Below, piece after piece: positions 2,100 through 61,234 of a DNA stretch of 64,000 nt. Every line of letters begins with the position of its first letter. Position 1 is the first letter of the stretch. The notes beneath the pieces were generated by a model. That model was not told the origin of the DNA and ran no database searches. It saw only the letters and a program-made list of their open reading frames with translations. The stretch lies in the IMG/VR virus record IMGVR_UViG_3300036761_003567, positions 1 to 64,000 of that record; one strand, given 5' to 3'. This stretch comes from a virus. The translations under genes and the position numbers were made by a program.

Positions 2100-5021
2100 T
2101 TACTGTGGAACAACCACTCCGCCGGCGATCAGAACTTCCTGCGCGGTGAAGCTCTGGTCCGTCCTCATGACCACGAGGTTGAGGACGACGAATTCTGCCG
2201 CGCGCGTCGGCTTGATGAATATCGAAACCCAGAGCTCGTTGCGGTCGATCCTCTCCGGCGTGTTGTTGGTGTCGTCGCAGACGACCTTGAAGCCGTACAG
2301 GCCGCGCCGGGCCTGGACGTCCGCCAGGAGCGGCTGGGAGACGTCGACCACCTGCGCCCGGGTGAACCTGTCGTTCGGCTCGAACACGAAGTTCCGGAGC
2401 GTCCTGACCAGGATCTTCTTGAGGTAGATCAGCAGCATCCGGACGTTGACCCGATCCAGCGCGCTCGCCTTGCGCTGCAGCGTCCTCTGGCCCCAGACCG
2501 TGATCCCATCCTGCGTGAAGTTCACGATCGGGTTGACCGCGTTCCCGCTCCCGTAGAGCAGGTTCCGCTCACCGAGAGTCGTGTTGTACTCGACGTCGAG
2601 CGGGGTCAGCAGGTGGCCGCGGTTGAGGCCCGCCGGAGCGAACCACACTTCCGCGACGTTGGCCGTCTTGGCGTAGACGCCTGCCACGTGGCCCGAGGGC
2701 GGAACCCAGATGTTCTGGCCGGAGAACTGGTCGAAGATCTTCAGCCAGCTGTAGTAGAGGGCGCCGTACGAGGAGTTGATCGCGGTCGAGAGGTCGCTCG
2801 AGAGCATCCCGTTGTGCCACTCGACGACCTGCTGTGGGCGGAGGCCGTAGGGCGGATCGACGATGTAGATCATGTCGCCGCGGGACTCGCACAGCTGGAG
2901 TCCCTGGCCGATGACCGCGCCAGAGCTGATGCCCGGGATCAGCAGGATGTTGGTATCGTACTCGTCCGAGTTCTGGAAGGCGAACAGCCCACTGGAAAGG
3001 GCCGGGTTCCCGATGATGACCCGGTCCAGCTCCGAGCTGAAGGCCGAATCGGTCGGAATTCCGTTTGCCGTACCGTTGGCGCCGCTGGCACGCTCCCACT
3101 GGAAGGTGCGGCGGATAAGAGTGCCGGGGTTCCTGACCTCGAAGGCGATGCCGCCGCTGCCGGTCACGGTGACCGCCGGATCACTCCCGAGGAAGGCCGG
3201 CCGATCCTCGTAATTGTAGAACGAGCTCCCGTTCACGCCACCGATGGCGGAATTCTCGTTCACGACATTGCCGATCCAGCGCTCGTTACTCTCGTCGAAG
3301 CTGATGTTGTCGATGCTGTCCTGCGCGACTCCGGAGCCGTCGACGAGCGTCAGGACGTATTTGCCGACGTCCCCTGCCGACGCGCGGTTGGTATCGATCT
3401 GGAGAGTCAGGTAGGTCCCGTCGATCCAGGTGCCAGGCGACTTTGCCACGACCCAGCCGACGATGTTCTGGAAGTACTCGGTGTCGGTCAGGCACTGCGC
3501 GCTGCCGGGCGCCGTCTCGCAGGAAAGCGGCACAGACGGCGTGATGTTGCCGGGGTCCGGTAGTGACACGCGCGGGTCGCTGAACCCGCGGAAATTGCGG
3601 TAATACGGGTAAGGGATGCCAACCTCCTCGGCGAACCTGAGCGTCTCGATGTTGCTCGCCGAGGCCAGGAGCTGGAGGAGATCATACTGCGTATCGTCGG
3701 CGGTGATGATCGCCACCCTGACATCCCCGTCGGCCACGGTGATGGGGAAGCTCTCGTAATAGCGCATCCCGAGATAGAGCCCGGATGCGTGAATCGCAGC
3801 CGCGATCATCGCAGCCGTGACGTTGGGCCCCACAGGAAGCGAGATGCTGAAGTTATGGACGTTCGTGCCGCTGGTAACGGAGAGCTTGATCCTGTCATCC
3901 GCCGTGGTGATGACGAAGGGGCTGGGCTCGGTGCCCACCAGGCTGCTCCGGGGGATGTCATATGCCCAGAGCGAGGTCCCCACTTCGAGAGCGAACCCCT
4001 CAGTGTCGATGATCTGAATGCGGTGTCCGGCCGTCTCGGTCACGATCTGGGGAATCCCACCGGACTCAATAGCGCGGTACCGCACCGCGCTTGGCGTAGG
4101 AGCTCCAGCGGCCAGATTGAATGCGGTCACGAAGTCCGCGTTCGTGGTGTAGGAAGCGACCGGCATCGTGTAGGGACCGCCGGAGCCACCACCACTGATT
4201 CCCTCGACGGCGACGTCGAACACCCTGTTGTTGGGTGCGACGCTGAAGGTGAAGATGTCCCCGGCCTCGATCGGGCATCCGCCGACCACCAGGACGGCCC
4301 CGGTCAAGCCGGTGGCGTCGGCACCGGAACCGATGGCAAAGGCAGCCGAAGCGCCGACTGGCGCCCCAGTGTCGGTCAGCGTGCCGGTCTGAATAACTGC
4401 ACCGTCGCTGTTCCGGATGATCTGGTAGGTGGCATCCTGGACGCTCGGCGCGCCATAGGAGCCGCCAGGCCCTTCCGTGATCAGGATGATGAAGCTGTCG
4501 TCGACCGCGCCGGTGTAAGTCCCGGTGACGACCAGCGTCGCATTCACCACGCCACAGGAACCCGACGGATCCACGTCCGTGAATTCGGGGGCGGAAACAG
4601 ACGCATCGTGGAATTCGTAAGGAGCGTCCACGGTGCATTCCCGCAGACGAAGGCGACCCAGGTCGATGCCCTGGAAGAGCGGAATGCGGCCGTACCCCTC
4701 GACATTCGCACCGCTCGTGTCGATGCAGATGTCCGAAAGCTCCGTCGGCTGCCCCTGCTCGCATTCGACGCCCACGCGCAGCGTGAACATCTGGTTCCCC
4801 TGCTCGAAATACCCCAGGGCCGCGAAGCCCATGTAGGAATCGAGAATCGGGGTTCCGAAGGTGTTCACCCACTGCTCGGACGTCGACGTGAAGATAGGCC
4901 TGCCCAGCTTCCCTTTCTGGGCCGTGCCGATCATCGCCGGCATCGTAGGACCTGCGGCAGCCGGAAGCAGACTGATGTCGATCTCGCGCGGGAAGACGCC
5001 GGGGGAGAGGAATACGGGCAT
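2100..5021 (-). CDS. Contractile tail sheath protein (T4 gp18-like), 973 aa
   Basis: N-terminus FLSPGVFPREID; C-terminus VPPSG, WFAPAG.NRG, VNPI, VWGQRTL, ALDRVNVRMLL, FEPND, VVCDDTNN, IKPTRAAEF. GGAG RBS. Confidence 0.97.
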   Translation of the reverse strand: MPVFLSPGVFPREIDISLLPAAAGPTMPAMIGTAQKGKLGRPIFTSTSEQWVNTFGTPILDSYMGFAALGYFEQGNQMFTLRVGVECEQGQPTELSDICIDTSGANVEGYGRIPLFQGIDLGRLRLRECTVDAPYEFHDASVSAPEFTDVDPSGSCGVVNATLVVTGTYTGAVDDSFIILITEGPGGSYGAPSVQDATYQIIRNSDGAVIQTGTLTDTGAPVGASAAFAIGSGADATGLTGAVLVVGGCPIEAGDIFTFSVAPNNRVFDVAVEGISGGGSGGPYTMPVASYTTNADFVTAFNLAAGAPTPSAVRYRAIESGGIPQIVTETAGHRIQIIDTEGFALEVGTSLWAYDIPRSSLVGTEPSPFVITTADDRIKLSVTSGTNVHNFSISLPVGPNVTAAMIAAAIHASGLYLGMRYYESFPITVADGDVRVAIITADDTQYDLLQLLASASNIETLRFAEEVGIPYPYYRNFRGFSDPRVSLPDPGNITPSVPLSCETAPGSAQCLTDTEYFQNIVGWVVAKSPGTWIDGTYLTLQIDTNRASAGDVGKYVLTLVDGSGVAQDSIDNISFDESNERWIGNVVNENSAIGGVNGSSFYNYEDRPAFLGSDPAVTVTGSGGIAFEVRNPGTLIRRTFQWERASGANGTANGIPTDSAFSSELDRVIIGNPALSSGLFAFQNSDEYDTNILLIPGISSGAVIGQGLQLCESRGDMIYIVDPPYGLRPQQVVEWHNGMLSSDLSTAINSSYGALYYSWLKIFDQFSGQNIWVPPSGHVAGVYAKTANVAEVWFAPAGLNRGHLLTPLDVEYNTTLGERNLLYGSGNAVNPIVNFTQDGITVWGQRTLQRKASALDRVNVRMLLIYLKKILVRTLRNFVFEPNDRFTRAQVVDVSQPLLADVQARRGLYGFKVVCDDTNNTPERIDRNELWVSIFIKPTRAAEFVVLNLVVMRTDQSFTAQEVLIAGGVVVPQ

Positions 5022-12733: not shown

Positions 12734-13363
12734 TTAGTCTACGCGAGGCATTACAATGCCTCGCTGATTTTGGTATTTACCACCTTTCCTTGCGTAATCT
12801 TTCTGCGGTTTGTATCCTCGGAAGAACAGGATCTGTGCGATGCCCTCCATCGCGTAAATCTTGGCCGGAAGCGGAGTCGCGTTGATGATCTCCACGACGA
12901 TCGTTCCGACGAATCCCGGTTCAATTGGGGTAGCATTGACGGCTATTCCGGCCCTTGCATATGTACTCTTGCCGAGGCAGACTCCGATCATGTTGTCTGG
13001 CATGCGGAACCGTTCCACGCTTTCTCCAAGCGCATAGGAATTCGGCGGGATAATACACGTCTTCCCGACGAAATCGACAAAGCAGTCGTCCGTGATCTTC
13101 TTGGGATCGATGATGGAGCTGCGGATGTTAGTAAAGATCTTAAAGTGCTTGGAAATCCTGATGTCGTAGCCATACGAGCTGTAGCCGTAGGAAATGGTGC
13201 CCTTCCGTTTCTCACCCTCCGCAGCCCTGTCTATGAATTTGAGCGCCTTCAGCTCATAATCACAGAGGATGCGCGGGCAGACTTTAGGCCAGGCAGAGAT
13301 CGGTATGGCACCTATCTGCTCCTGCGTCAGCCAGGCCGAATCGTCAGGTTGTCGCCTTCGCAT
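12734..13363 (-). CDS. dcd: dCTP deaminase
   Basis: ISYGYSSYGYDIR, IPPNSYAL, GKSTYAR.G, TPIEPGF.G, EGIAQILF, YQNQRG. Confidence 0.95.
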   Translation of the reverse strand: MRRRQPDDSAWLTQEQIGAIPISAWPKVCPRILCDYELKALKFIDRAAEGEKRKGTISYGYSSYGYDIRISKHFKIFTNIRSSIIDPKKITDDCFVDFVGKTCIIPPNSYALGESVERFRMPDNMIGVCLGKSTYARAGIAVNATPIEPGFVGTIVVEIINATPLPAKIYAMEGIAQILFFRGYKPQKDYARKGGKYQNQRGIVMPRVD

Positions 13364-13763
13364 CCGGAGTCCTTTCTACGACTTCGACTTGGATCCTATG
13401 GAAACGGAAGGATCGACAAATAAGACCCTCTTCGTGCCGGACCAGAATAGGCTTCGCTACGACGTTATAACCCTTCTTGATACTATCCTGTAAGAAGATG
13501 CCGGCAGGCGTATTCAGGATTTCCAGGTCCGCGATTATCTCCTCGCCGTCCAGCCGAATGCCGAGGACCTTGTGCGACGGATTGCTCGTATCGGCTATCC
13601 GATCCGGGTCCCGGTTCAGGATACTGCCCACCATCTCCTGCTGGATCCTCAAAGCGAGTCGGGGATCCAGCAAGGCTTTCTCTATGGCGGAACGCGTGAG
13701 CGTAATGCCGTCCCTCTCTCCAGGCTTGTCGGCAAATACGCCTGTCCTGGCCGTGACCTTCAT
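13344..13763 (-). CDS. Degenerate prohead protease (T4 gp21-like) paralog
   Basis: SHKV..IRLDG.EII...EIL.TP.G..L....G matches the gp21 core, but the GE..HP and SSRG catalytic motifs are absent. Confidence 0.5.
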   Translation of the reverse strand: MKVTARTGVFADKPGERDGITLTRSAIEKALLDPRLALRIQQEMVGSILNRDPDRIADTSNPSHKVLGIRLDGEEIIADLEILNTPAGIFLQDSIKKGYNVVAKPILVRHEEGLICRSFRFHRIQVEVVERTPDAKATT

Positions 13764-14014
13764 CCCTTGAGAATGTGTTTTGAGACGAATTTGGTCATCG
13801 TGAACATCGAGACTTGCGACGCCCCTTCGAATAGCACCTTCAGCTTGTCGTCGGCGTTGATGTTCGTCTTCTTCACCTTGTCCTGCAGTCCGTTCTTCTT
13901 GATGTACTCCCAGAGCTTCTTGGTGATCTCGGTCCTGGGCTTCGGCTCCGGACCCACCACGGCCCCGAGTGCCTCATCCACCTTCACCGGCGCCATGAAC
14001 TTGTTCACCGCCAT
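13760..14014 (-). CDS. SWIB/MDM2 domain protein
   Basis: L.AVVG..P.PRTEITKKLWEYIKKNGLQD......INADDKLK.LF.....VSMF.M.K....H. Confidence 0.93.
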   Translation of the reverse strand: MAVNKFMAPVKVDEALGAVVGPEPKPRTEITKKLWEYIKKNGLQDKVKKTNINADDKLKVLFEGASQVSMFTMTKFVSKHILKG

Positions 14015-14034: not shown

Positions 14035-14490
14035 TTAAGCCTTCAAAGGGTTTTCATAGACACCAGGCGTACTGTTTGGGATTATCGTAGCGCCAACGAC
14101 CTTGCCGTAGAATTCCACGGGTCCGACGCCTCCAACGATGCCGTAGACGTAACCCAGTTCGCGCAAGCCGTGGAGGGCGGACAGCAGGAGAGCCCTCCCT
14201 ATGCCGCGCTTCCGATACGAACTGGAGACGCCTTCCGGACCCAGGAAAGCCCTCGCGGTGCATTCATAGGCGCAAAAGCCGCAGACCTTCCCATTGTCGA
14301 TGGCGATGAAGAGAGTCGACGGCTTCAACGAAAAGGCGACAGACGCCTCATCGGCCCAGCCTGGTCCGAAGTTTGACAGAATGAAATGAAGTACGGGCGT
14401 CATCTCGAATGGAAGCGCCCGGCGGATCACGATCCCCTGTACGCGTGGTATCGCCGGAATCTCTAACAGCTTGACCAGCATGTCTGCCAT
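14035..14490 (-). CDS. GNAT family N-acetyltransferase
   Basis: Motif A GV...YRKRGIGRALL; FY motif. Confidence 0.88.
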   Translation of the reverse strand: MADMLVKLLEIPAIPRVQGIVIRRALPFEMTPVLHFILSNFGPGWADEASVAFSLKPSTLFIAIDNGKVCGFCAYECTARAFLGPEGVSSSYRKRGIGRALLLSALHGLRELGYVYGIVGGVGPVEFYGKVVGATIIPNSTPGVYENPLKA

Positions 14491-14500
14491 ACCGTCCGAC

Positions 14501-15775
14501 TTAAATAGTTACGTGAATTTTGTCCGCGGTATTCGGTCCAGTCCCCAGGATGATGCACATTCCCATGTCCGGCCAGTTCGTATCGCTTTTGAAGACGTCG
14601 AGCACGTTCTCTTGCAGCCAGGCCATCACCTTCGGCGTGATGGTACCATCACGCCCGGACAGGGCGTCGTTCAGGCGTATATTACCGCGCCGGCCAGTCA
14701 TATCACCATCAAGATAGTTCACGAAATTGACGGACAGAAAGATCCAGCCGTTCGCGCGGTTGTATTCGATGGATTGCTTGAGATTTTGCTTGGAGAAGGT
14801 GAAGACGCGGCGTGGAAGCTTGGTGACGCTAGTGATCTCCGTAATAGGCGTCGGAGATCCGGAGATCTTGGTGACTTCTTCCCAGGTCGTCTCCACCTGG
14901 TCAGAATAACCTGGTCCGCTGTTATATTTCACGACTTGGTAGGGCTTCCCCTCCTTCTCGTACTTCTGGACCTCGTCCCACGTCATGTGTCTATTCCCGT
15001 CCAGATACTTGTTGCTGTTGATCCGGATCGGATAAGTCCTGAGGTTAATGATGACGTTCCCGGCATAATGGACCGGGAGCATCATGTCATCCAGTCCTGC
15101 CGCCGTCGTGCAGTTCCGGGACGTCGTGAAAGGGAACATTTCGGCTAGGAGGTAGGACAACTGGAAGCCCTGCGCGATTTCCAGGAGTCCAGACTGTCCA
15201 TCCTTCAGCCTTTGTATGATCTCACCTGGCACGTCGCATAGGAATTGCTTCAGCTCCGGAATGTCCCTCGCGTACTTGGCTTCCTTGCGCCGCAAGACTC
15301 GCCTGGCGCGACACGCGCCGGCGCCATGGGCGGTACTGCCCGCCTTCATGGTCCCGTCGTGCTTCTCTGTGGGGAATCCTTCAAAATCCAGCACGCCGCG
15401 CTCGAATCCGGAGTCGATGTCCTGGAGGATGGCCGCGACCGGACTAATCCCAAGCTTGTGCGGGGGTACGTTGTTCTCCTTGATCTCTCTGAACAGGGCT
15501 GGCAGCTCGATGATCGCCCCCGGGCCGATGTAGAGCTTCTCGTACTTGTCGACCATGTAAGCACAGCTGTTGAGTGTCTGGTAGAAGAACTTCCGGCCGT
15601 CGTCCAGCTTCACCCAATGGCCCGCCTGCGGAGCGAAGGCATTACAGGCAAATTGCCAGTTCTTGGCATATTCGCAGAGATGAGATCCCAGTACGCCCTT
15701 CCCCGAGCTCCCAGCCTGACCGTCGAGCAGGACCGTGAGCTCGCCAGGACTAAAAGCGAATGATGTGTCGAACAT
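14501..15775 (-). CDS. purZ: Adenylosuccinate synthetase-family enzyme with PurZ signatures (N6-succino-2-amino-dAMP synthase)
   Basis: DGQAGSSGKG (Ser at E. coli PurA D13), AGH, GST..G.G, EIAQG, RTYPIR, SGP.YSDQ.E..W, TSVTKLPRRVFTFS (Leu at R303), NFVNY (in place of TKLD). Start revised to ATG 15775 with AGGAGG RBS. Confidence 0.8.
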   Translation of the reverse strand: MFDTSFAFSPGELTVLLDGQAGSSGKGVLGSHLCEYAKNWQFACNAFAPQAGHWVKLDDGRKFFYQTLNSCAYMVDKYEKLYIGPGAIIELPALFREIKENNVPPHKLGISPVAAILQDIDSGFERGVLDFEGFPTEKHDGTMKAGSTAHGAGACRARRVLRRKEAKYARDIPELKQFLCDVPGEIIQRLKDGQSGLLEIAQGFQLSYLLAEMFPFTTSRNCTTAAGLDDMMLPVHYAGNVIINLRTYPIRINSNKYLDGNRHMTWDEVQKYEKEGKPYQVVKYNSGPGYSDQVETTWEEVTKISGSPTPITEITSVTKLPRRVFTFSKQNLKQSIEYNRANGWIFLSVNFVNYLDGDMTGRRGNIRLNDALSGRDGTITPKVMAWLQENVLDVFKSDTNWPDMGMCIILGTGPNTADKIHVTI

Positions 15776-15783
15776 CGCGCCTC

Positions 15784-16113
15784 CTAGAATGATTTCTGCA
15801 ACCAGGCAACTGGGACCCAAATCAGAACGTTCCTCTTCCCCCGCCTTACCCTAATGCGCGCGTGGGCATAATCCTTCTGTATGACGGTTGCTGGCTCCAG
15901 GTTCAGCTCGTGGCCCTTATTGACGACGTAGACTTGCTCATTGACCAAGAAACGCGGAATGATCACTCTCCGTTTCTCGTGCCTTATGAAGACGACTTCA
16001 AAGAAGAACCCCTTCAAGCATGAGACACAATCCACCTGGAATGAGCGCTTTTCCTGTTGCTCGCTCTCCAGCTCGTTTTCTGTTCCGCAGTAAGGGCATC
16101 GAACGGTTTCCAT
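15784..16113 (-). CDS. Zinc-ribbon plus SH3/KOW-like small protein
   Basis: CPYC and CVSC pairs; beta-rich C-terminus. Confidence 0.6.
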   Translation of the reverse strand: METVRCPYCGTENELESEQQEKRSFQVDCVSCLKGFFFEVVFIRHEKRRVIIPRFLVNEQVYVVNKGHELNLEPATVIQKDYAHARIRVRRGKRNVLIWVPVAWLQKSF

Positions 16114-16116
16114 TAC

Positions 16117-16878
16117 TCATAACTTTTCTGTCTGATCCGGCACTTTCGCTTCTTGGGCAGATTCTTGCTTCGGAGCGAGAGGCTGTGCAGGCTGGTTCTG
16201 GATCTCCTGAGCCATTCGGAGAATGGACCGGGCCTGGTCCAGCGACACGCCGATCCTGGTTACCCCGGGGATCTTCAGCAACGCCGTCACCTTCTGGCAC
16301 TGCTCCCGCGGGTCCTTGGGGAGTCCGCAGACCTTCACGAGATTGGGCGCGTCGGCTCGGACCCTCTCCACGGCTGCGACGATGGCTGTGAGGGCAGGCA
16401 CGATGACGAGGCTCGTCTCCAGCCTCACGAGGGCGGGCCGACTGAATTTGAATTCCTCGCAGCAGGCCTTGATCTCGGCGTCGTTCCGATTGAAGATGCC
16501 CAGGACGAACCGAATCTCAGCAAGCGGGTTGTATCTCTTGATGAGGTCCGTGATGGCCCGGATCTCATTCTTGCAGTTGGCTTCGCCTCTGTTGGCGCTT
16601 AGGACGATTTCGAACCCATCTGCCTCGAACGCGTCCTGGGGGACGTCCCGGAGCTTGTCCAGCGCAAACTCCCTTCCGGCAGGAAAATCCACCGCCGCCA
16701 CGATCCTATACTGTCCGTCCCGAGTCGATTTGTCGACGATAGCCGCTTGGACGGCGGTCGGCGGTACCATGACGGCCTGACACCGATTTTTTGATGCGAA
16801 CATACCCGCATCGACCAGTTCCCGCTGGTTCAAGCCGCCGACCTCGATCTCGAGCTTGGACGTGATCTGGATCGTCAT
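16117..16878 (-). CDS. DeoC (deoxyribose-phosphate aldolase)-like TIM barrel with altered active site
   Basis: AVMVPP, VDFPAG, ADGFEIV, VKVCG and RIGVS align to DeoC motifs; the Schiff-base KTSTG region reads RLETS. Start revised (ATGA overlap). Confidence 0.6.
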   Translation of the reverse strand: MTIQITSKLEIEVGGLNQRELVDAGMFASKNRCQAVMVPPTAVQAAIVDKSTRDGQYRIVAAVDFPAGREFALDKLRDVPQDAFEADGFEIVLSANRGEANCKNEIRAITDLIKRYNPLAEIRFVLGIFNRNDAEIKACCEEFKFSRPALVRLETSLVIVPALTAIVAAVERVRADAPNLVKVCGLPKDPREQCQKVTALLKIPGVTRIGVSLDQARSILRMAQEIQNQPAQPLAPKQESAQEAKVPDQTEKL

Positions 16879-17513
16879 TTTTGCCCTTTCTGCGGCATCC
16901 AGGTCAAGAAAATCCACTTCTTCGGATCTATTGGCCGATTGCCTTCGTTAATATGTCTCACGGCCGTCAAGAGCTGATCCTCGTTCGGGAAGAAGACGTC
17001 ATCCATGTCGCTGATCTTATCTACGAACATCGACACCAGCCACATGGATGGGACGCCGTCAGGACAGATGAACATGACGGGGGCGCCGGCCCTGGACAGG
17101 AGCGCCAGCTCTTCAAACGTCCCCACCGTGAATGGGCTCTTGGGCAGTCGGCAGATACACCAGTTTGTCGCATGGACCATCCGAAGGCAGACGTCCCTCT
17201 GAATATGCATGTCCTGGAGAGCCGCCTCGGCTTCGCCCTTCTCCGTTTCCACTTCCGAAGGCGGGACCAAGCGGCCCACAAAATTTGAACAAACCCTTGG
17301 CGTGCCAGGTCGACAAAAGAATTTCTCGTTGATGTCTGCCTGCGGCCGACGACCTCGAGGGCCGACCCATTCCGGCTTGACGAGGGGGTTGAGGACGATA
17401 ACGTCCATCCCGGACAATTCCTGCGTCAGCCGACTGCGCCATTCAGCTGCGTGAGGGTCCGCCTCCACAGGTCCACCTAAGTATACTGTCGTCCCGCTTA
17501 AAATACCCATCAT
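16875..17513 (-). CDS. Nucleoside 2-deoxyribosyltransferase / DNPH1-like N-glycosidase
   Basis: VYLGGP, WR, VLNP, GTFEE (catalytic Glu) and S.WL motifs. Confidence 0.7.
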   Translation of the reverse strand: MMGILSGTTVYLGGPVEADPHAAEWRSRLTQELSGMDVIVLNPLVKPEWVGPRGRRPQADINEKFFCRPGTPRVCSNFVGRLVPPSEVETEKGEAEAALQDMHIQRDVCLRMVHATNWCICRLPKSPFTVGTFEELALLSRAGAPVMFICPDGVPSMWLVSMFVDKISDMDDVFFPNEDQLLTAVRHINEGNRPIDPKKWIFLTWMPQKGQK

Positions 17514-17890
17514 TGTCTCATTTCTTTTAAGAATGCTTTCACTTCGTCATTGGTGTGCCTGTTTTTACCTAAATTTATAAATTGACAAACCAATTGCACA
17601 TTCCCGACGAGATATCCTCTCTTGCTGTCTATCCTATCAATAGAAATCGAAGCATGATTTCCGAGAGTGTGCATCATCTGCAAACCGCTTAAAGCACATT
17701 TTCCGTCTTGAGCTCCGTACAAGTCAATTAAATACTGGCATGTAATTGTGTCAGGTGCCGACCCTATTCTCGGCTTCGCTATTATGAATCTGTTTGTGAT
17801 AAAATTATGGGCTGACCGCTCTACCCATGCCGCTACTCTCCGTCTGTGTTCGGCTTTTTTCTCGGGAGTTAATTGTTTATACTTACCCAC
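17510..17890 (-). CDS. HNH-like (His-Me finger) endonuclease
   Basis: C..SG..M...SIDRIDS..GY..GNVQLVC.FIN..K; AT-rich. GTG start is uncertain. Confidence 0.7.
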   Translation of the reverse strand: MGKYKQLTPEKKAEHRRRVAAWVERSAHNFITNRFIIAKPRIGSAPDTITCQYLIDLYGAQDGKCALSGLQMMHTLGNHASISIDRIDSKRGYLVGNVQLVCQFINLGKNRHTNDEVKAFLKEMRQ

Positions 17891-18464
17891 GCCGCAATCC
17901 GGCCAAGAACTCCTTGGCGGCCTCATTGGTTCCAGAATACTTACCAAGATTTACAAATTGACACACAAGCTGGATATTACCACGCACATATCCAATACCA
18001 TTATCGATTCGGTCTATGGATATAGCATTAAGCTTTCCAATTTGGTGTACAAGCTTGACGCCAGACAGCGCACACCTGCCGCTTTGTCTTGCGTACAAGT
18101 CAGCTAAAAATCTCAGATCAACGTCCAACTTCAACGGCCTCCGAAACACATAGCGTCCGTCGGGTTTTTGATGCTTGCGAAGTCTAGTGCGTTTCTTGAT
18201 GCTACCATATAAACCTGCCAAGAAAGAGAATGGCGTCTTCTCTATGTTGTGCCTGTGCTTGAGCTGATAATATTCTCTCCTGGCAAAATAGCATTTACTC
18301 TTCGCGTGCGATATTCTCTCCTTATTTGCAATCCTATAAAGCTTCTTTTTGTTATTTGTACAAGTCTTGCACACAGATCCGTACCCACGCTCGTTCAATG
18401 AAAAATCCAGCGTTTGTTTGACAAACCCACACTTACTACACACCTTTGTATCTTTTTGTTCCAT
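17883..18464 (-). CDS. HNH-like endonuclease with N-terminal CxxC zinc finger
   Basis: CSKC/CKTC; CALSG...SIDRIDN..GY..GNIQLVC..VN..K; AT-rich. Confidence 0.75.
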   Translation of the reverse strand: MEQKDTKVCSKCGFVKQTLDFSLNERGYGSVCKTCTNNKKKLYRIANKERISHAKSKCYFARREYYQLKHRHNIEKTPFSFLAGLYGSIKKRTRLRKHQKPDGRYVFRRPLKLDVDLRFLADLYARQSGRCALSGVKLVHQIGKLNAISIDRIDNGIGYVRGNIQLVCQFVNLGKYSGTNEAAKEFLAGLRRG

Positions 18465-22196: not shown

Positions 22197-23990
22197 TTAG
22201 CGGGCCTCCACGATCTTCGAGAACCCGCCTTCCTTGATGACCTTGATCTTGGAGGGGAAGGCATCCCTCATCTCGTCCTTGTGGGAGATGACGAAGACGG
22301 CATCCGGCCGGTTCTGGTTGCCCTTCTTGACGAAGTCCTTCTCGATGACGTCCACGAAGGCCTGGACGCCGACGGTGTCCAGCCGGCCGTCGACTTCGTC
22401 CAGTACCATGACGTTGCACTGGATGCCGTAGATCGCCACATAGAGGTCATAGAGGGCGAACATGACCGCGAGGTCGATCCGCTTTCTCTCGCCTCCGGAG
22501 CAGTAGTCATAGTCCCATTTGCTGGTCGAGTCCTGGAGCGTCGGAGTGAATTTCAGGTCGAACTCGCAGCCGAAGGCCTTCAGATAGTATCCGACGCGCT
22601 CGTTGAGGAACGGGACCAGGTCGCCCAACATGAAGCTCTTGAGCTTCTTCTTGTCGTTATAGGCGTTGAAGATGTACTGGAGATGACGCAGGAGGATGTT
22701 GTATTTCTTGACCTGGTCTGTCTGATCCTGGACGGTGGTCTCGCCGAGGCGGATGCTCGCCTCGCCGCGCTTGATCATGTCCCCGTAAGGATTCTGTTCC
22801 GTCTGGATGCGCTTGATCTCCCCGCCGACTCCCTCAATCTGCTGTCGGATGCGCTCGATCTCCCGGCAGACGGCCTCCGCCTCCGCCACGGTCTGCTTTG
22901 GACCGGCACTTTCAACCTTCTTCCGGGTTATTTCGATGAGGCCATCTATGCGAGCGACTTCCTTCTGGAGAGCGTCTATCTGGCCCTGCAGCTCTTGCTT
23001 CTTGCCAGAGAACGGCTCGCAGACGCTGGCGACGTGATCCTTGCCAATAGCTTGCTTACAGCTTGGACACGTCGTGCCAGCTTTGGCCTTCCAGGCAGAC
23101 TCCTCTCCAGCGATCCTGCTTATGTCCCTGCCGAGGCTGAATACGAGGGCAGCCTTCTTCCGCTTCTCTGTTTCGTATTCGCTTAGCTTGTCCTGGATCT
23201 TCTCGATGACGGCCCACTGCCGCTTAAGCTCGATGACGTCGGGCGCCTGCTTATTCAGGAGTTCCGACTGGAGGGCCTTCTTGCGAGCCTCGGCCTGCGA
23301 GACACGCGAAGCGCAATCCTGTTCCCACTTAGCTTGATCCGCTCGTCTGGCCTTTATCTCCTCTTGCAAGCGAACAAGCTCTTGCTGCTGGGAGTCCAAA
23401 GCCACGGAAAATCTGGCCTGCTCTATCTCGCAGGCAGAAATCTTCTCCTTGGCGACCTCGGCCCAGACGTTGATACGATGGAGGTTGAAGACGCGCTCGA
23501 GGATGGCTCGGCGCTTCGCATCCGTCAGCTCCAGGAAGGACTTCCCGAGCTGCCCGAAGAAGACGCAGCTGGTGAAGATCTCGAAATCCAGACCGAAGAG
23601 CTTGATGACATACTTCTGGGTATTTTCCGTAGTGGACTGCGTGATGTCCGCGCCATCCTTGGCGATGGATAGCTCGGCGACTCCCTTCGACTTCCGGGTC
23701 CTCGTGATGACATATCCGTCCACCGTCTCTATTTGGACGAAGCAGTCCTTCCCGGTGAACCAGTTGATGACTCCGTCGCCAGGACGATCCTTGTTGATGG
23801 TACGCCCGAAGAGACACCACAGGATGGCCGCGGCCAGGGAGGACTTACCCGCCCCGTTGGAGCTTCCTTCCTCGTCGCCCAGCTTCTCGCCGACGATAAG
23901 GGTCGGTCCGAGATCAGCCACTTCAATGCGGCTGATCTCGTCTCCGTAGGATAGGAAGTTTTTGAGCTCGACGCTCTTGATACGGATCAT
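22197..23990 (-). CDS. SbcC/Rad50/gp46-like ATPase
   Basis: KNFLSYG, Walker A NGAGKS, CPSC zinc hook, SGGE signature, Walker B VLDE, ISH. Confidence 0.95.
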   Translation of the reverse strand: MIRIKSVELKNFLSYGDEISRIEVADLGPTLIVGEKLGDEEGSSNGAGKSSLAAAILWCLFGRTINKDRPGDGVINWFTGKDCFVQIETVDGYVITRTRKSKGVAELSIAKDGADITQSTTENTQKYVIKLFGLDFEIFTSCVFFGQLGKSFLELTDAKRRAILERVFNLHRINVWAEVAKEKISACEIEQARFSVALDSQQQELVRLQEEIKARRADQAKWEQDCASRVSQAEARKKALQSELLNKQAPDVIELKRQWAVIEKIQDKLSEYETEKRKKAALVFSLGRDISRIAGEESAWKAKAGTTCPSCKQAIGKDHVASVCEPFSGKKQELQGQIDALQKEVARIDGLIEITRKKVESAGPKQTVAEAEAVCREIERIRQQIEGVGGEIKRIQTEQNPYGDMIKRGEASIRLGETTVQDQTDQVKKYNILLRHLQYIFNAYNDKKKLKSFMLGDLVPFLNERVGYYLKAFGCEFDLKFTPTLQDSTSKWDYDYCSGGERKRIDLAVMFALYDLYVAIYGIQCNVMVLDEVDGRLDTVGVQAFVDVIEKDFVKKGNQNRPDAVFVISHKDEMRDAFPSKIKVIKEGGFSKIVEAR

Positions 23991-24856
23991 GTGGTTGGGA
24001 AGTCAAATTCCTGTCCACGCGTGACGAAACCCAGGAAGCCATCGGCCTTCGGATCCTGCGTCGGCTTCGGCTGATAGTGGTACAGCCACATCTTCTTCTT
24101 GATGTCAGAGTGGAGCGTCTTGAGGTCATCGTAATGAGCGTGGACCTTGGAGTAGTAAGGCGCCGTCTCCGTGTCGTGGAAGATGAGGTCAGCAGACTGG
24201 TAGAACTTCGTGATCTGGTTCGGGCAGAACTGCGTGTCCGTCGTGAAGAAGATCCGTGGACCGAACACCGCGTATTCAGCCCCACGAAGCTCTTTCAACG
24301 AAGAAATACTAGGAATGTTATTCTGGTCGACAATACAGCCGGTCGCCATTCTGTGCTTGCATTGCTGAATCATGAGTCCATAGCTGTGTGTGATCTTGAA
24401 GCCACTCATGATGTGGACTGTCTGGACCGGCGTGAACAAGATGCCTTCCCATACGAAACTGCTATTGATCGGTACCGGGTGGCATTCGAAGTAATCGGTG
24501 ATGTTCATCACCTTCTCTTCGAGGCTCTCGAGCCCACCGCACAGGCTGTGTTCCCAGAGCTCCTTCATGAGCTCCGGGACGCAGAAGAGAAGAGGCCGTG
24601 GATCGCCCGGCTTCTTGGTGAAGTAGCGGACGAACGCCAGATATTCCATCCCGCCGATGTGGTCTGCGTGGAGGTGCGAGATATAAGCGGCATCGATGTT
24701 TCGCGCGTCCAGACCCAGCTTGCCCAGAGCGAACCGAATGTCGCTCCCGCAGTCGATGAGCAGCCTCTTACCCGAGGCAGCCTGCACGATCGCGTTGGAC
24801 TGGAAGTACTCTTCCGTCGTAAACGCGCTACCGCATCCCGCAAAGGTGAGTTTCAT
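23987..24856 (-). CDS. MBL-fold cyclic-nucleotide phosphodiesterase, Apyc1-like
   Basis: GCGSAF, LLIDCG, HLHADH.GG.E, LWEHSL.GG, DYF, TVH, DTQF, IFHD, VHA, HY. Start revised to MKLTFAG. Confidence 0.75.
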   Translation of the reverse strand: MKLTFAGCGSAFTTEEYFQSNAIVQAASGKRLLIDCGSDIRFALGKLGLDARNIDAAYISHLHADHIGGMEYLAFVRYFTKKPGDPRPLLFCVPELMKELWEHSLCGGLESLEEKVMNITDYFECHPVPINSSFVWEGILFTPVQTVHIMSGFKITHSYGLMIQQCKHRMATGCIVDQNNIPSISSLKELRGAEYAVFGPRIFFTTDTQFCPNQITKFYQSADLIFHDTETAPYYSKVHAHYDDLKTLHSDIKKKMWLYHYQPKPTQDPKADGFLGFVTRGQEFDFPTT

Positions 24857-24857
24857 G

Positions 24858-25925
24858 TTAGTCCTCGCTGATTTGGACGCTGATCCGTTCCTCTGCCTCT
24901 GCGATGATCTGCGCATTCAACTTGGCCAGGATCTTGTAGTTCAAGCCTTCCGGCTTCTCCTTCTCCAACCATCTCTCTAGGAGCTTCTCGGGGGTCTTCA
25001 TGTCCACTTCACTCTTGCGGGCGGCCTCGATCTCGACATCCTTCTCTTTCGGTCTGATCCAGCTGACACCAAGAGCCCCACGCTCCCGGGCCATCTTGTC
25101 CAGCTTGGACAGGTCTTCCTTGGTATAGTCCTTCGTGAGGATCAGCCTAACGTTGTTCCCCTTGAAGAACTCGGGAGGCTTCTTGTCGGCATCGGCATCC
25201 AAGACCGTGAGATAAAGGGGCGGCGGCTCGCCTTCCGCACCGATGGACCGGATGTTGATGAACTCCCACTTCATCTTGTCCGTGTCGCAGACGATGAAGC
25301 CGTGCGGGACGAGCCCCTCATCGAACCTGAACGCGACCGGGCTTCCGGGATAGGTGATGTTCCCGACCGTCTGATGGCAGTGAAAGTGGCCCGCAAAGGC
25401 GAGGTTGAATTTCGTCTTATCGAAGTTCACGAAGGACCAGTTCTTTAGCAGGAAGCATTCGTTCAGCTTCGCGCCGCAGACGCCGATGTGCGTCAGGAGG
25501 ATGTCGTCCGACTTGATCTTCTTCTCGACAGCGGCGAGCTCCTTCATGTACTGCTGCTCGTCGTAGATGAAGGGGATGATCCAATACTTGCCGCCGACTT
25601 TCTTGATGGATGGCTCAATGGTAACGAGGGATGAGAGCGATCTTAACGAATGAATGTCCCAGGAATTCTTCAAGAACATGTCGTGATTGCCAGGGAAGGC
25701 AAGCCATGACAACTGCTGGCTCTCTTCTTCCTCGAAGAATGCGTGAACGGCGTTGAGGACCTCAATGTTGAGATTGACACGGTCGTGAAAAAGATCCCCA
25801 AGGATAAGGACGTTCTTGATTCCCATCCGAATGGCGTAATGGCGAATAGCCCGCGCCGCCCAGAGCGTATAGCTCAGCTTCCGGGGGACTCCCGCGTGCC
25901 AATCCGCCGTTATGATGACCTTCAT
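24858..25925 (-). CDS. SbcD/Mre11/gp47-like nuclease
   Basis: ADWH, LGDLFH, GNHD, GHFH, YPGSP metallophosphoesterase motifs. Confidence 0.95.
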   Translation of the reverse strand: MKVIITADWHAGVPRKLSYTLWAARAIRHYAIRMGIKNVLILGDLFHDRVNLNIEVLNAVHAFFEEEESQQLSWLAFPGNHDMFLKNSWDIHSLRSLSSLVTIEPSIKKVGGKYWIIPFIYDEQQYMKELAAVEKKIKSDDILLTHIGVCGAKLNECFLLKNWSFVNFDKTKFNLAFAGHFHCHQTVGNITYPGSPVAFRFDEGLVPHGFIVCDTDKMKWEFINIRSIGAEGEPPPLYLTVLDADADKKPPEFFKGNNVRLILTKDYTKEDLSKLDKMARERGALGVSWIRPKEKDVEIEAARKSEVDMKTPEKLLERWLEKEKPEGLNYKILAKLNAQIIAEAEERISVQISED

Positions 25926-26095: not shown

Positions 26096-26158
26096 GTGGA
26101 TCATATTCAGCCTCCTGGACCCGTTCCACTAAAATACGCCACGTATTTCACTTTTCAC

Positions 26159-28972
26159 ATGAGCATCACAGACGCAGACATCCAGGCGAAATTCCCATTC
26201 TCCCAGTTCCGGCCTGACCAGCTCGAGGCCGTCCGCCTCACGCTTGACCAGTTCGACAAGGGCAAGAAGTTCGTCATCATCGAGATGCCCGTAGGCGGTG
26301 GCAAGTCCGCCATTGCCTATTCCGTCGCCCAGTTCTTTGCCAATTCCTATTACCTTACGATCCAGCGCTTCCTCCAGGACCAGCTCATGGGGGACTTCGG
26401 CCAGCCGCCCAGAGATGGCCTCCTTCCGATGGTGGACCTGAAGGGCCGCGGAAACTACCAGTGCACCCATGCCCAAAGAAACGCCTTCGCTCTCGTCCGG
26501 GGACTGCTTTCGTCCCTCGGCCATCCCGATACCATAGCAAAACAGGTAGCGGAATACTTCGTCAAGAATCGGAACTTCGAGGGCCTATCCATAAAGCTGG
26601 ACTTCGACGCCGTCTCCAAGATCGTCGAGATGGTCGAGAACAAGCCGGGCTGCGATAAGGGAGTCTGCCGGACTCGGGACGGCAAATCCAGGTGCAAGGA
26701 CTGCTTCCCGAACGGCCTTCCAGCGCTGTGTCCTTATTGGGCTAGGAATGCCCAGGCCCAAGCCGCCCAAATCTGCCTCATGAACTTCCGGGTGTTCCTC
26801 CACCAGACGGTCCTGACGAACGCCTTCGGCCACCGGGATCTGATGATCGTGGATGAGTGCTTCCACCCGCACACGAATATCGTAACCGACAGAGGAAGAA
26901 TCCCCATCGGCAAATTAGTGAACAAAAGAATTGATTGTTCTGTACTGTCCTATAACAAAAAGCTTCAAAAGCTCGAATTCAAGCCAATATCCCGCTTCTT
27001 AAAACGAGGAAAGCGACCAACTTTTAAAGTGATTGCCGGGAACAGGGTGATGTACCCAACAGCAGACCACAAGATCCATACGCCAAATGGCCTCAAGAAA
27101 CTCTGCGACCTTCGTGTCGGCGATTTGATCATCGTAAACGAACCAGAAATCTCCCACACACAACAACAAATCCTCCTTGGATCGTTATTAGGTGATGCGT
27201 CAGTACAAATAGTCCCATCGAAAAGGAAATCGTGGAAATATGCCCCCAAAGGGGCAAGAGCCCGAGTTCGATTCGTCCACAGCTCAAAACAGCTTACTTT
27301 CCTGCGTTGGAAGTACAATATTCTGAAGGAACATGTAAATACTGGCCCCAAGATTTTTAAAAGTAAGGGGTTCTCAAAACGTGTCGCACGATTCAACACA
27401 AAGTGCAACATGTTTGAACAAATTAAAGTCGTAATCCGGAACCACAAGAAAACTCCCAACAAAGCATGGTTCCAGAAAATAGAAGACCTTGGATTGGCTG
27501 TATGGTTTATGGACGATGGGTCTTGCAACAGAAACACAATCCACCTTCACACAGAAGGATATACCTTACAAGAAAATCGAAAAATTGCCTTCTGGCTGCG
27601 GGAAACTCTCGATATCCCAGCTAAGGTTCTGTCATACTGCAAGCGCGACCATGTGCTGTACTATATTACGCTTGGTAGAAGTGGCAGCAGGATCTTAGCA
27701 CAAAAGATAGCCAGGTTTATACCACCATTCATGCGATACAAGCTACCCAGTGGACAGTGGGATCCTTATAACCCAGAACTGGAAGTCAAAAGATCAAAGC
27801 CAGTTAGCGCACAGCCCGTCTTCTCTATTAACCCATACAAGGAAACTGTCACGTACGATCTAGAAGTAGCAGACAACCATAATTATTTTGCCGGTTCTAG
27901 CCTCGTCTCCAATTGTCATCAAATGGAATCGGAGCTGATGAACTTCATCGGCTTCAGCCTGAATGACAAGTCGCTCCGAGAATACGGCATCGTCCTGTCC
28001 GAGATGGGCTCCGCCGCCGAGTACGCAAGGTTCCTGAAGGATAAGGACATCCTGGCCGTCATCGAGAACATACTGAAGATGGCGCGCGCGGCCGGAGACC
28101 TTGAGAAGGAAGACGAGTGGATGGACATCGAGAGGCGGTGCGGGCACTTCCTCGCAACGGCCGAAGACGGTAACTGGGTCGCCCTCTTCAAGGATACGGA
28201 CCAGAGGAAGAAATACAAGGTCATCTGGAACACGGTAGAACTCAAACCCGTCTATGTCCGCAAGATGGCCCACGACTTCGTGTTCAACAGGGCGGACAAG
28301 GTCCTCATGATGAGCGCCACGGTCCTGTCGGCGAAGACGGTCTGCTCATCCCTGGGGATCGAAACGAATGACATGTACGCCATCCGGTACGGAAGCCGCT
28401 TCCCCGTCGAGAACCGCCCGATCTTCTTCACGCCGGTAGGTTCACTCAGCTATAAGAACAAGGCGGAGACCCTGCCCAAGATCGTGCCGGCCGTCGACAA
28501 GATCCTGAATAAGTATAAGGGCAAGAAGGGCATCATCCACACGCACAACTTCGAGATTGCCAGGTTGCTGATCAGCGAGTGCGAGACCAGGGACCGCATG
28601 CTCTTCCAGGAGGATTTCGAAAACAAGAAGGAAATGCTCAAGGAGCACGCCGAACGCGAGGACTCCGTAATCGTAGCTCCCGCTATGCACGAGGGGCTGG
28701 ACCTGAAAGACGAGCTCAGTCGCTTTCAGATCATTGTAAAGATGCCGTACCCGCCGATCAAGGGAAACCCACAGCTTGAAGCCCGGATGCAAGACTCGCA
28801 GGAATATTATGACTGGCTGACGGCTCTCAAGCTGGTCCAGGCAACGGGCAGGTCAGTGAGGTCAGAGACGGACTGGGCGCACACTTATATCCTGGATGCC
28901 GATTTTGAATGGTTCTTGCGAAAGGCTCGTGGAATTCTGCCGAAGTGGTTCAAGGAAGCGATCAGGACCTAG
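26159..28972 (+). CDS. DinG/Rad3-like SF2 helicase containing an intein
   Basis: Q motif RPDQ, Walker A PVGGGKS, Cys cluster, DE|CH after splicing, MSAT, EGLD, Q.TGR.VR. Start revised to ATG 26159. Confidence 0.9.
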   Translation: MSITDADIQAKFPFSQFRPDQLEAVRLTLDQFDKGKKFVIIEMPVGGGKSAIAYSVAQFFANSYYLTIQRFLQDQLMGDFGQPPRDGLLPMVDLKGRGNYQCTHAQRNAFALVRGLLSSLGHPDTIAKQVAEYFVKNRNFEGLSIKLDFDAVSKIVEMVENKPGCDKGVCRTRDGKSRCKDCFPNGLPALCPYWARNAQAQAAQICLMNFRVFLHQTVLTNAFGHRDLMIVDECFHPHTNIVTDRGRIPIGKLVNKRIDCSVLSYNKKLQKLEFKPISRFLKRGKRPTFKVIAGNRVMYPTADHKIHTPNGLKKLCDLRVGDLIIVNEPEISHTQQQILLGSLLGDASVQIVPSKRKSWKYAPKGARARVRFVHSSKQLTFLRWKYNILKEHVNTGPKIFKSKGFSKRVARFNTKCNMFEQIKVVIRNHKKTPNKAWFQKIEDLGLAVWFMDDGSCNRNTIHLHTEGYTLQENRKIAFWLRETLDIPAKVLSYCKRDHVLYYITLGRSGSRILAQKIARFIPPFMRYKLPSGQWDPYNPELEVKRSKPVSAQPVFSINPYKETVTYDLEVADNHNYFAGSSLVSNCHQMESELMNFIGFSLNDKSLREYGIVLSEMGSAAEYARFLKDKDILAVIENILKMARAAGDLEKEDEWMDIERRCGHFLATAEDGNWVALFKDTDQRKKYKVIWNTVELKPVYVRKMAHDFVFNRADKVLMMSATVLSAKTVCSSLGIETNDMYAIRYGSRFPVENRPIFFTPVGSLSYKNKAETLPKIVPAVDKILNKYKGKKGIIHTHNFEIARLLISECETRDRMLFQEDFENKKEMLKEHAEREDSVIVAPAMHEGLDLKDELSRFQIIVKMPYPPIKGNPQLEARMQDSQEYYDWLTALKLVQATGRSVRSETDWAHTYILDADFEWFLRKARGILPKWFKEAIRT
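26858..27913 (+). mobile_element. Intein with LAGLIDADG homing endonuclease (352 aa)
   Basis: Starts CFHPHT; block B TADH; LLGSLLGDA and LAVWFMDDG; ends YDLEVADNHNYFAGSSLVSN followed by Cys+1; AT-rich. Confidence 0.93.
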
Positions 28973-37528: not shown

Positions 37529-38878
37529 GTGGCAGACCCGACTGACCGAGACAAGCAAATCGAGGCGGCCGAGAAGGCCTACCCAGGCCCGAAGGACTTC
37601 GTCCACCTCCATTCTCATTCCGTATTCTCGCCATTGGACGGCCTTCCTGATCCTGAGGATTACGCCAAGGAATGTCAGCTCCGCGGATTCCCTGCTATGG
37701 TCCTGACGGACCACGGCAGCATGGGAGGAATTCCGGATGCCTATCTGGCTGCAAAAAGCGCGAAGGTAAAGTTCATCGCGGGCTGCGAGATCTACTTCAA
37801 CGACAAGCACCTCGAGTGGGCAGAGAAACAGAAGCTCGGTATTTCTATCGGCACCATCAAGGCGCAGGACGCAGAACTACGCGACGAATATGTCCGCAAC
37901 AGGCACGTGACCGTGCTTACGAAGAACATGGCCGGCTACAGGAACCTGGTCATGATGCTCACGAACGCCTGGGAAATCGGGCATTATTACAAGCCCAGGA
38001 TCTGGCTGGACATCATGAAGCAGCACCAGGAAGGTCTAATCATCCTGTCCGGGTGCCTGAATGGCCCTATCTGTCATTATCTCCGGAAGGATAATACGAA
38101 GAAGGCGATGGAGTACATCAAGAAGTTCAAGGACATCTGGGGAGATGACTATTACCTCGAAGTCCAAATGCCTGGTAAGGAAATCCCGGACGGCGTAAAG
38201 ACCTTCATCAAGCTCATGACCATCGCGAAGTCAGTAGGCTTCAAGGCAGTCCTGACGAACGATACGCATTACCTGAGGCGGGAGGACTTCCAGGTCCAGA
38301 AGCTCATGATGGCCATCGACCAGAAGCTGAGGGTCGATGACCCGAATCTCTTCCACGTGAATTCGGACGAGCAGTTCTATAAGACGCGGGCGGAACTAAG
38401 GCAGACTTTCCAGGAACAGGGGTACGCCTATGGCGGACACATTACCCTGAAGGACTTCGAAGCCGCCTGTGATAACGCGCTAGAGGTCGCCCAGAAATGT
38501 GAGGGCTTCAAGCCGGACACGAGCCTGAAGCTTCCGGAAGTGCCCGACGCGGATAAACAGCTCGTCGCCCTGACGCTCCAGGGGCTCCGCCGGATCAATA
38601 AGCATGAAGATGAGGTCTACGTCGCCCGTGCGAAGCGGGAACTCAAGATGATCATCGAGAAGGGCTTCAGCTCTTACTTCCTCATCACGCGGGATCTGAT
38701 CGCCCACTCAAGGAGCCTTGGCTTCGAAGTGGGGCCTGGTAGAGGCAGCGTGGGAGGCTCGCTCGTGGCGTATCTAATCCAAATAACGACGATAGACCCC
38801 ATCGTATTCAAGCTCAATTTTGAAAGGTTCATCAGCCCGTCGCGCGGCGGCAACCTCCTTAGGGTGACCATGTCATGA
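37529..38878 (+). CDS. dnaE: DNA polymerase III alpha, piece A: PHP domain plus first palm segment
   Basis: FVHLHSHS, TDHG, GCEIY, YYKPRI, LSGC, TNDTHY, GPGRGS.GGSLVAYL.IT.IDP, FERF..P.R; stops before PDID. Confidence 0.9.
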   Translation: MADPTDRDKQIEAAEKAYPGPKDFVHLHSHSVFSPLDGLPDPEDYAKECQLRGFPAMVLTDHGSMGGIPDAYLAAKSAKVKFIAGCEIYFNDKHLEWAEKQKLGISIGTIKAQDAELRDEYVRNRHVTVLTKNMAGYRNLVMMLTNAWEIGHYYKPRIWLDIMKQHQEGLIILSGCLNGPICHYLRKDNTKKAMEYIKKFKDIWGDDYYLEVQMPGKEIPDGVKTFIKLMTIAKSVGFKAVLTNDTHYLRREDFQVQKLMMAIDQKLRVDDPNLFHVNSDEQFYKTRAELRQTFQEQGYAYGGHITLKDFEAACDNALEVAQKCEGFKPDTSLKLPEVPDADKQLVALTLQGLRRINKHEDEVYVARAKRELKMIIEKGFSSYFLITRDLIAHSRSLGFEVGPGRGSVGGSLVAYLIQITTIDPIVFKLNFERFISPSRGGNLLRVTMS

Positions 38879-61227: not shown

Positions 61228-61234
61228 AGATGAT

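Follow-up and report, generated by a model that had tools for sequence, protein, structure and literature searches.

The locus described here raises the question of whether a large myophage that replicates with a DnaE-type polymerase makes the precursor of 2-aminoadenine (Z) DNA, and by which route adenine would then be kept out. To our knowledge, all phages with documented Z-DNA are so far about 40 kb in size, replicate with PolA or PrimPol and carry DatZ/MazZ or DutZ/DmtZ helpers. The DNA analyzed (the window) comprises the first 64,000 nucleotides of the IMG/VR record IMGVR_UViG_3300036761_003567, a contig of 107,223 bp that lacks terminal repeats and has a CheckV completeness estimate of 29%. 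Within it, a previous sequence-only reading had singled out one gene as encoding a PurZ-signature enzyme:

14501..15775, minus strand: purZ-like gene of the 'long' PurZ subfamily, 424 aa (translation; Pfam, PDB and PHROG matches)

The translation of this gene is intact and stop-free, and its product is an adenylosuccinate-synthetase homologue. We took the ATG at 15775 as the real start, since it is preceded by AGGAGG at a distance of 5 nt and homologues share this initial Met (MF(D/N)T...); given this start, a longer ORF opening with TTG (to 15820) was superfluous and was discarded. The four motifs on which the sequence-only reading had relied are all encoded here, namely DGQAGSSGKG (residues 18–27), RTYPIR (246–251), TSVTKLPRRVFTFS (315–328) and NFVNY (350–354).

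The protein matched Pfam PF00709 (Adenylsucc_synt) at 1e-12 and PHROG 1211 ('2-aminooxy adenylosuccinate synthetase') at 5.6e-35. The closest solved structure was phiVC8 PurZ (PDB 6FKO, 2.5e-23), S-2L PurZ and Pyrococcus PurA tied at 3e-18 in the PDB search, and bacterial and eukaryotic PurA of the E. coli type appeared at 1e-4 or worse; E. coli PurA compared with the window's PurZ gave E = 0.004. Among NCBIfam models, PurZ (NF038379) ranked first with 143.4 bits, which is below its cut-off of 300 bits, and archaeal-type PurA came second with 118 bits. On sequence grounds, neither the adenylosuccinate-synthetase homology nor the PurZ signature is a product of chance, because of the strength of the Pfam, PHROG and 6FKO matches and because the signature is invariant in 28 relatives.

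Residues were mapped in a MAFFT alignment of 127 sequences, among them E. coli PurA, four reference PurZ/PurZ0 proteins and the protein of Flavobacterium phage MaF61. The hallmarks claimed beforehand (Ser at E. coli D13, Leu at R303 and NFxN for TKLD) were recovered as S23 at the catalytic Asp site, L320, and the motif N350-F351-x-N353-Y354, in which F351 and N353 occupy the positions of K331 and D333 of the GTP-specifying TKLD. An ATP-type NTP pocket is thus present (N350, F351, N353 and Y354, with the equivalents of phiVC8 F295 and Y298), and the PurA catalytic set is kept (K16, H41, T129, R143, Q224, T239, S240, T301 and R305). The signature positions did not vary among the 28 relatives, which are 53–84% identical to the window's protein; S23 was found in 28/28 family members and in 30/30 long-clade sequences. 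Yang et al. (bioRxiv 10.1101/2025.10.22.683976) described 12 phiVC8 residues by which PurZ on dZ-contigs can be told from PurA. Eight of these are identical here, S14, T262, F295, Y298, P233, Y244 and W252 among them, and one more (S273) is conservatively replaced by Thr. The others changed are F12 (to Ala), G256 (to Thr) and P144 (to Lys). In the dGMP site, T315 matches phiVC8 T262, while F12, which reportedly contributes to accommodating the 2-amino group (bioRxiv 10.1101/2025.10.22.683976), corresponds to Ala21, Ala being found in 16 of the 18 members of the window's own subfamily; other long-clade members, MaF61 included, keep Phe.

Compared with the PurZ enzymes of phiVC8, S-2L and SH-Ab 15497 (PDB 6FKO/6FM0, 7ODX), to which it is 28–30% identical over about 350 residues, the window's protein shares the fold, all catalytic residues, Ser at the Asp13 site, the Thr/Ser next to it, TxVTKLPRR and the NFxNY ATP pocket. 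It differs in belonging to a separate clade (100/99), in being 40–80 residues longer, with a 45-residue insertion after RTYPIRI (residues ~254–300) and a C-terminal extension that the short PurZ forms do not have, in carrying Ala for phiVC8 F12, and in reading QAGHW for NAGHT.

This form of the enzyme is widespread. A word-indexed search returned 518 clusters (at 90% identity) at E<=1e-5, and the best 120 of the 518 were all 400–460 aa long and located on contigs of up to 252 kb, the 252-kb contig itself carrying a PurZ homologue. When 1.84 billion representatives were searched exhaustively, 1388 matched; among the best 150 of these, every full-length sequence had Ser at the Asp13 site, bar one with Gly. 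The long clade as a whole (~400–480 aa) is abundant in metagenomes, on contigs of up to 320 kb. Several of its members reach 750–890 aa and carry Hint/LAGLIDADG inteins at differing positions, with insertion points near residues 57, 148 and 220 (metagenomic homologues P0122, P0124 and P0195). Inteins at several sites are typical of indispensable genes.

The sequence-only reading had proposed a phylogeny with PurA, PurZ0 and PurZ as a check. In addition to quick trees, a careful IQ-TREE analysis of 79 rows was carried out under LG+G4, with E. coli PurA as the sole outgroup. It resolved three groups, each with UFBoot/SH-aLRT values of 100/99: PurZ0, which includes Arthrobacter phage Wayne; classical PurZ, with S-2L, SH-Ab 15497 and a phiVC8-like Vibrio phage; and a 'long' clade of 25 rows, to which the window's protein and MaF61 belong. 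The long clade lies inside the Ser-bearing PurZ/PurZ0 radiation, on its NFxN (ATP-type) side, and the protein does not group with PurA; however, it falls outside the clade of characterized PurZ enzymes in this tree, whose only root, the long E. coli PurA branch, meets the Wayne branch.

With respect to the phage itself, a tail sheath gene at 2100–5021 indicates a contractile tail, and DnaE (PF07733) is split into two ORFs (37529–38878 and 41316–43403, plus strand) with opposite-strand genes between them. The earlier description of a DnaE-using myophage was therefore correct. The same two-piece layout occurs in three relatives (G004, G005 and G006), of which G005 is a complete genome of 320,399 bp with direct terminal repeats and a long-type PurZ; another relative, G001, measures 247 kb and is 91% complete. 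The epithet 'jumbo' is accurate for the complete relative, but for the window's own phage, of which 107,223 bp at 29% estimated completeness are available, the size is inferred. Other genes on the contig encode a DnaB-type helicase and UvsX-like, gp32-like and SbcCD proteins. An SF2 helicase of 958 aa (ResIII + Helicase_C_2) is encoded at 26096–28972 (plus strand) and harbours an intein that carries a LAGLIDADG endonuclease.

No DatZ or MazZ had been seen in the window, and a search beyond it for HD (DatZ) and MazG/DUF550 (MazZ) genes had been suggested. Across the whole 107-kb contig, no HD, YfbR-like, HD_3, MazG, DUF550, Lyase_1 (PurB) or guanylate-kinase domain scored over its cut-off, and the DatZ, MazZ and DUF550 proteins of S-2L and SH-Ab 15497 used as queries gave no match. 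The same held in the 91%-complete G001 for YfbR-like, HD_3, MazG, DUF550, PurB and guanylate kinase, and in the complete G005 for the domains searched there, HD_3, MazG, DUF550 and PurB. MazG and DUF550 gave no match over the cut-off in seven records, G001 showing one sub-threshold DUF550 of 15 bits. The sole HD match in G001 was considered as a DatZ and rejected, as it is SpoT/RelA-like. The absence first noted in the window thus extends to the rest of the contig and to a complete 320-kb relative. That no DatZ, MazZ or DUF550 was found in complete G005 counts against complete adenine exclusion in these phages. The earlier suggestion of a different route fits this absence, and candidate genes for such a route adjoin purZ.

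The purZ gene lies in a co-directional, tightly packed block that runs from 17513 down to 12734 and contains, besides purZ:

16875..17513, minus strand: NDT-superfamily (DmtZ/DNPH1-like) protein, 212 aa (weak Pfam Nuc_deoxyri_tr2 match, fold match)
16117..16878, minus strand: DERA-fold TIM-barrel protein (deoxyribose-5-phosphate-aldolase-like), 253 aa (AlphaFold/Foldseek)
15784..16113, minus strand: small Cys-rich (zinc-ribbon-like) ORF, 109 aa, between the DERA-like gene and purZ
14035..14490, minus strand: GNAT acetyltransferase, directly downstream of purZ
13760..14014, minus strand: SWIB/MDM2-domain protein
12734..13363, minus strand: dCTP-deaminase-like (DCD) protein, keeping the Dcd-type Glu (VVEIIN)

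Not all of these neighbours travel with purZ. The zinc-ribbon-like ORF occupies the purZ-adjacent position in only 2/12 related loci, and the GNAT acetyltransferase is not conserved across them. The DCD gene is also found near purZ in G001 and adjoins the NDT/DERA pair in complete G005. It was considered as a DutZ analogue and rejected, in view of its Dcd-type catalytic Glu and a match to the dCTP-deaminase PHROG at 5e-50, against 1e-6 for the Dut domain of Wayne.

The NDT-like and DERA-like genes are located upstream of purZ, past the zinc-ribbon-like ORF. The DERA-like ATG overlaps the NDT-like stop codon as ATGA and, judging by this overlap, the two genes are translationally coupled. As PDB profile searches with both families yielded no significant match, folds were predicted instead. 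The AlphaFold model of the NDT-like protein (pLDDT 88.8) matched NDT, DNPH1 and MilB in Foldseek with probability 1.0, and its homologues carry PF15891 and PF05014; a 95%-identical protein is encoded on a 284-kb contig. Conserved residues are Y11, E17, D117, E134/E135, S156 and W158, and the protein is predicted to adopt an NDT fold in which the catalytic Tyr/Asp(Asn)/Glu triad is present.

A precedent for such a protein comes from the PurZ0/DutZ/DmtZ systems of Arthrobacter phage Wayne and Gordonia phage Ghobes (Poubanne et al., PMC12884076), where full substitution is attained without DatZ/MazZ by means of an NDT-family dAMP hydrolase/transferase and a Dut-family dATP/dGTP pyrophosphatase. 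In DmtZ, roles have been assigned to a catalytic Tyr, a nucleophile Glu and a lid Trp (W124), and an Asp (Ghobes D12) is proposed to read the 6-amino group of adenine (PMC12884076). Aligned by hhalign with the DmtZ domain of Wayne, a weak match (E 5.7e-4, probability 30%), the NDT-like protein places Y11 at the catalytic Tyr, E17 at the acidic residue of Tyr+6, E134/E135 at the nucleophile Glu and W158 of its PS-W motif at the lid Trp. The systems also differ: the synthetase here is ATP-type (NFxN), whereas PurZ0 is GTP-type (GSE...D), an extra DERA-fold partner is present here, the phage is 7–8 times larger, and the similarity to DmtZ is weak.

The DERA-like protein had no Pfam, PHROG or PDB sequence match, although its AlphaFold model (pLDDT 92.6) matched DERA structures in Foldseek with E 3e-11 and TM 0.66–0.81, and two of its homologues are named DERA by JGI. 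It shares the fold with DERA/DeoC, yet the class I aldolase Schiff-base Lys (strand beta-6, K167 of E. coli DeoC) is absent by hhalign, an Arg (LVR) lying opposite it in an alignment of low statistical support that fits the strand positions of the model; the family consensus at this site is IRxD. The equivalent of Lys201 (K195) is kept, and K88, G81, G101 and E118 are invariant in the family. Without the Schiff-base Lys, the role proposed for this protein below is a weak one.

We then considered how closely this pair is linked to purZ. Related-locus searches were usable with two family alignments; two deeper alignments gave no usable pattern, and PurZ as a single-protein query found one distant locus. 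Among 12 viral loci found via PurZ, the NDT-like gene was present in 10 and the DERA-like gene beside it in 11. Searched from the NDT-like side, 13 viral loci with a close NDT-like protein all had the DERA-like gene directly after it, and all 13 genomes contained purZ, within 10 kb in 12 of them and about 26 kb away in G005. More distant NDT-like proteins (22–25% identity) had neither a DERA-like nor a purZ partner. Gene order in this neighbourhood, including SbcCD, a gp55-like gene and others, is largely syntenic across relatives, so inherited synteny could account for some of the linkage. In 2/13 loci purZ is a short form from other PurZ lineages of the tree, the pair thereby accompanying three separate PurZ lineages, which argues that its association with PurZ is not confined to a single phage lineage. 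Next after the pair in G005 come Dcd, thymidylate kinase and Dut, and Dut-type genes are also found in G001–G003; none was seen in the window's 29% fragment.

Two of the related loci deserve separate mention. In L033 (IMGVR_UViG_3300037264_003921), the pair lies beside a short PurZ, and the same record contains HD_3 (1.2e-10) and a split DnaE. In L037, the pair is near a short PurZ, with a dCMP deaminase between the pair and purZ.

The only cultured member of the long clade is phage MaF61, a 168-kb myovirus (PQ858689) whose ORF141 is 34% identical to the window's protein over 95% of its length and shares GSSGKG and NFVNY. It differs in having a family-B polymerase and in encoding MazG (24 bits, cut-off 22), HD_3 (29 bits, cut-off 22.5), adenylosuccinate lyase (PurB) and guanylate kinase (the ORFs concerned are ORF62, ORF95, ORF97, ORF141 and ORF149), a helper set that, by its domain matches, is the canonical Z toolkit. 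The paper describing MaF61 (PMC13269007) mentions neither the PurZ-like gene, nor the helper set, nor a possible Z genome. Since neither an NDT-like nor a DERA-like protein was found in the MaF61 genome, the two helper sets appear to be alternatives. Among the papers searched, a set without Tong et al. 2023 (PurZ0), none connected PurZ with myoviruses, with jumbo phages or with DnaE replicases. The hosts of known PurZ are sipho- and podoviruses of 40 kb with PolA or PrimPol, in contrast with the jumbo DnaE myophage without DatZ/MazZ to which the window belongs.

Homology, signature residues, clade placement, gene linkage and the absence of canonical helpers are directly supported by these results. 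The reading that we favour, and hold to be probable, is that the gene product is an N6-succino-2-amino-2'-deoxyadenylate synthase (a PurZ-type enzyme) from a separate, long subfamily carried by large/jumbo myophages, that this enzyme would make the dZTP precursor, and that adenine would be excluded by a route other than DatZ/MazZ. The enzyme would join aspartate to dGMP, with ATP or dATP donating the phosphate; Ser23 in place of Asp13 would make room for the 2-amino group, and N350-F351-x-N353-Y354 would replace the guanine-reading TKLD. As neither PurB (searched in the contig, G001 and G005) nor a guanylate kinase (searched in the contig and G001) was found in the window's branch, host PurB and host kinases are invoked to carry the product to dZTP, after which Z would be incorporated into DNA by the DnaE replicase that the phage encodes. 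The exclusion of adenine would follow a route resembling DutZ/DmtZ of PurZ0 phages rather than DatZ/MazZ, in which the DmtZ-like NDT protein would split dAMP into adenine and deoxyribose-5-phosphate, its coupled DERA-fold partner might handle the sugar phosphate in some way, and a Dut-type dNTP pyrophosphatase, seen in relatives rather than in the 29% fragment, would take part. All substrates, and Z in DNA, are what we infer; Z-DNA in the window's phage is plausible from the sequence. All of the sequence-level checks proposed with the earlier claim that the phage makes dZTP gave results that favour it. The claim gains from the PurZ substitutions at the dGMP and NTP sites and from the lack of clustering with PurA, but loses from the position outside the characterized clade, the score of 143 against 300 bits and the change of F12 to Ala, and it is here held to be partly supported.

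Alternatively, dZMP precursors could be made but lead to no more than partial substitution of the genome, or the product could serve to skew the nucleotide pool or to counter host defence. The missing adenine-exclusion enzymes speak for this (HD_3, MazG, DUF550 and PurB in G005 and G001, and YfbR in G001), and DnaE replicases are not known to select Z. PurZ0 phages, however, substitute fully with Dut- and NDT-type enzymes and no DatZ/MazZ (PMC12884076), and analogues of both are present here or in relatives, which makes the alternative unlikely.

A different substrate, such as ribo-GMP, a modified or deaza dGMP or another 2-amino-purine, leading to a base other than Z, is less likely still. 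The nearly fixed Ala21, which would widen the pocket relative to Phe/Trp, the 45-residue insertion and the unusual helper genes could be read in its favour, but all other ligand-contacting residues match PurZ, other members of the long clade, MaF61 among them, keep Phe, and no deazapurine or other modification genes were present among the genes examined. Finally, an ordinary PurA-like auxiliary metabolic gene that raises AMP/dAMP supply from IMP, as PF00709 membership and the JGI label 'adenylosuccinate synthase' on homologues might suggest, is highly improbable, given Ser for Asp13 in every family member, the loss of the GTP-reading TKLD, the E. coli PurA match of 0.004 and the tree.

Returning to the PurZ-type enzyme with adenine exclusion independent of DatZ/MazZ, a wider proposal can be put forward tentatively, as one that may well prove too broad. 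Jumbo DnaE myophages might form a large unrecognized group with Z genomes, with a third adenine-exclusion route composed of a DmtZ-like N-glycosidase, a repurposed DERA-fold protein without the Schiff-base Lys and Dut; a family-C replicase would copy Z-DNA, and NDT/DERA would be a portable module joined to at least three PurZ lineages. Should the long clade be active, Z-genomes would extend to phages of 170–320 kb with DnaE or PolB replicases, and with them would come an environmental group of great abundance (>500 clusters at 90% identity). Polymerases able to copy Z-DNA processively would be suggested as well, together with a new helper pair, NDT-like plus DERA-like, and cultured MaF61 makes the Z-genome question directly testable.

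Several further genes were observed. A metallo-beta-lactamase-fold protein encoded at 23987–24916 (minus strand), between the SbcC-like and SbcD-like genes, matches the Pfam Anti-Pycsar Apyc1 model at 4.8e-26 (92 bits, cut-off 50) and is a candidate cyclic-nucleotide-degrading counter-defence gene. A 639-aa protein with a glycosyltransferase domain (PHROG 2456, 1.9e-23) is encoded at 58239–60158 (plus strand). Two adjacent, overlapping ORFs at 17510–17947 and 17883–18464 (minus strand) both match HNH/endonuclease VII PHROGs and have paralogues at 60136–61314 and at contig position 105613–106278; together they look like scattered homing-endonuclease-like insertions.
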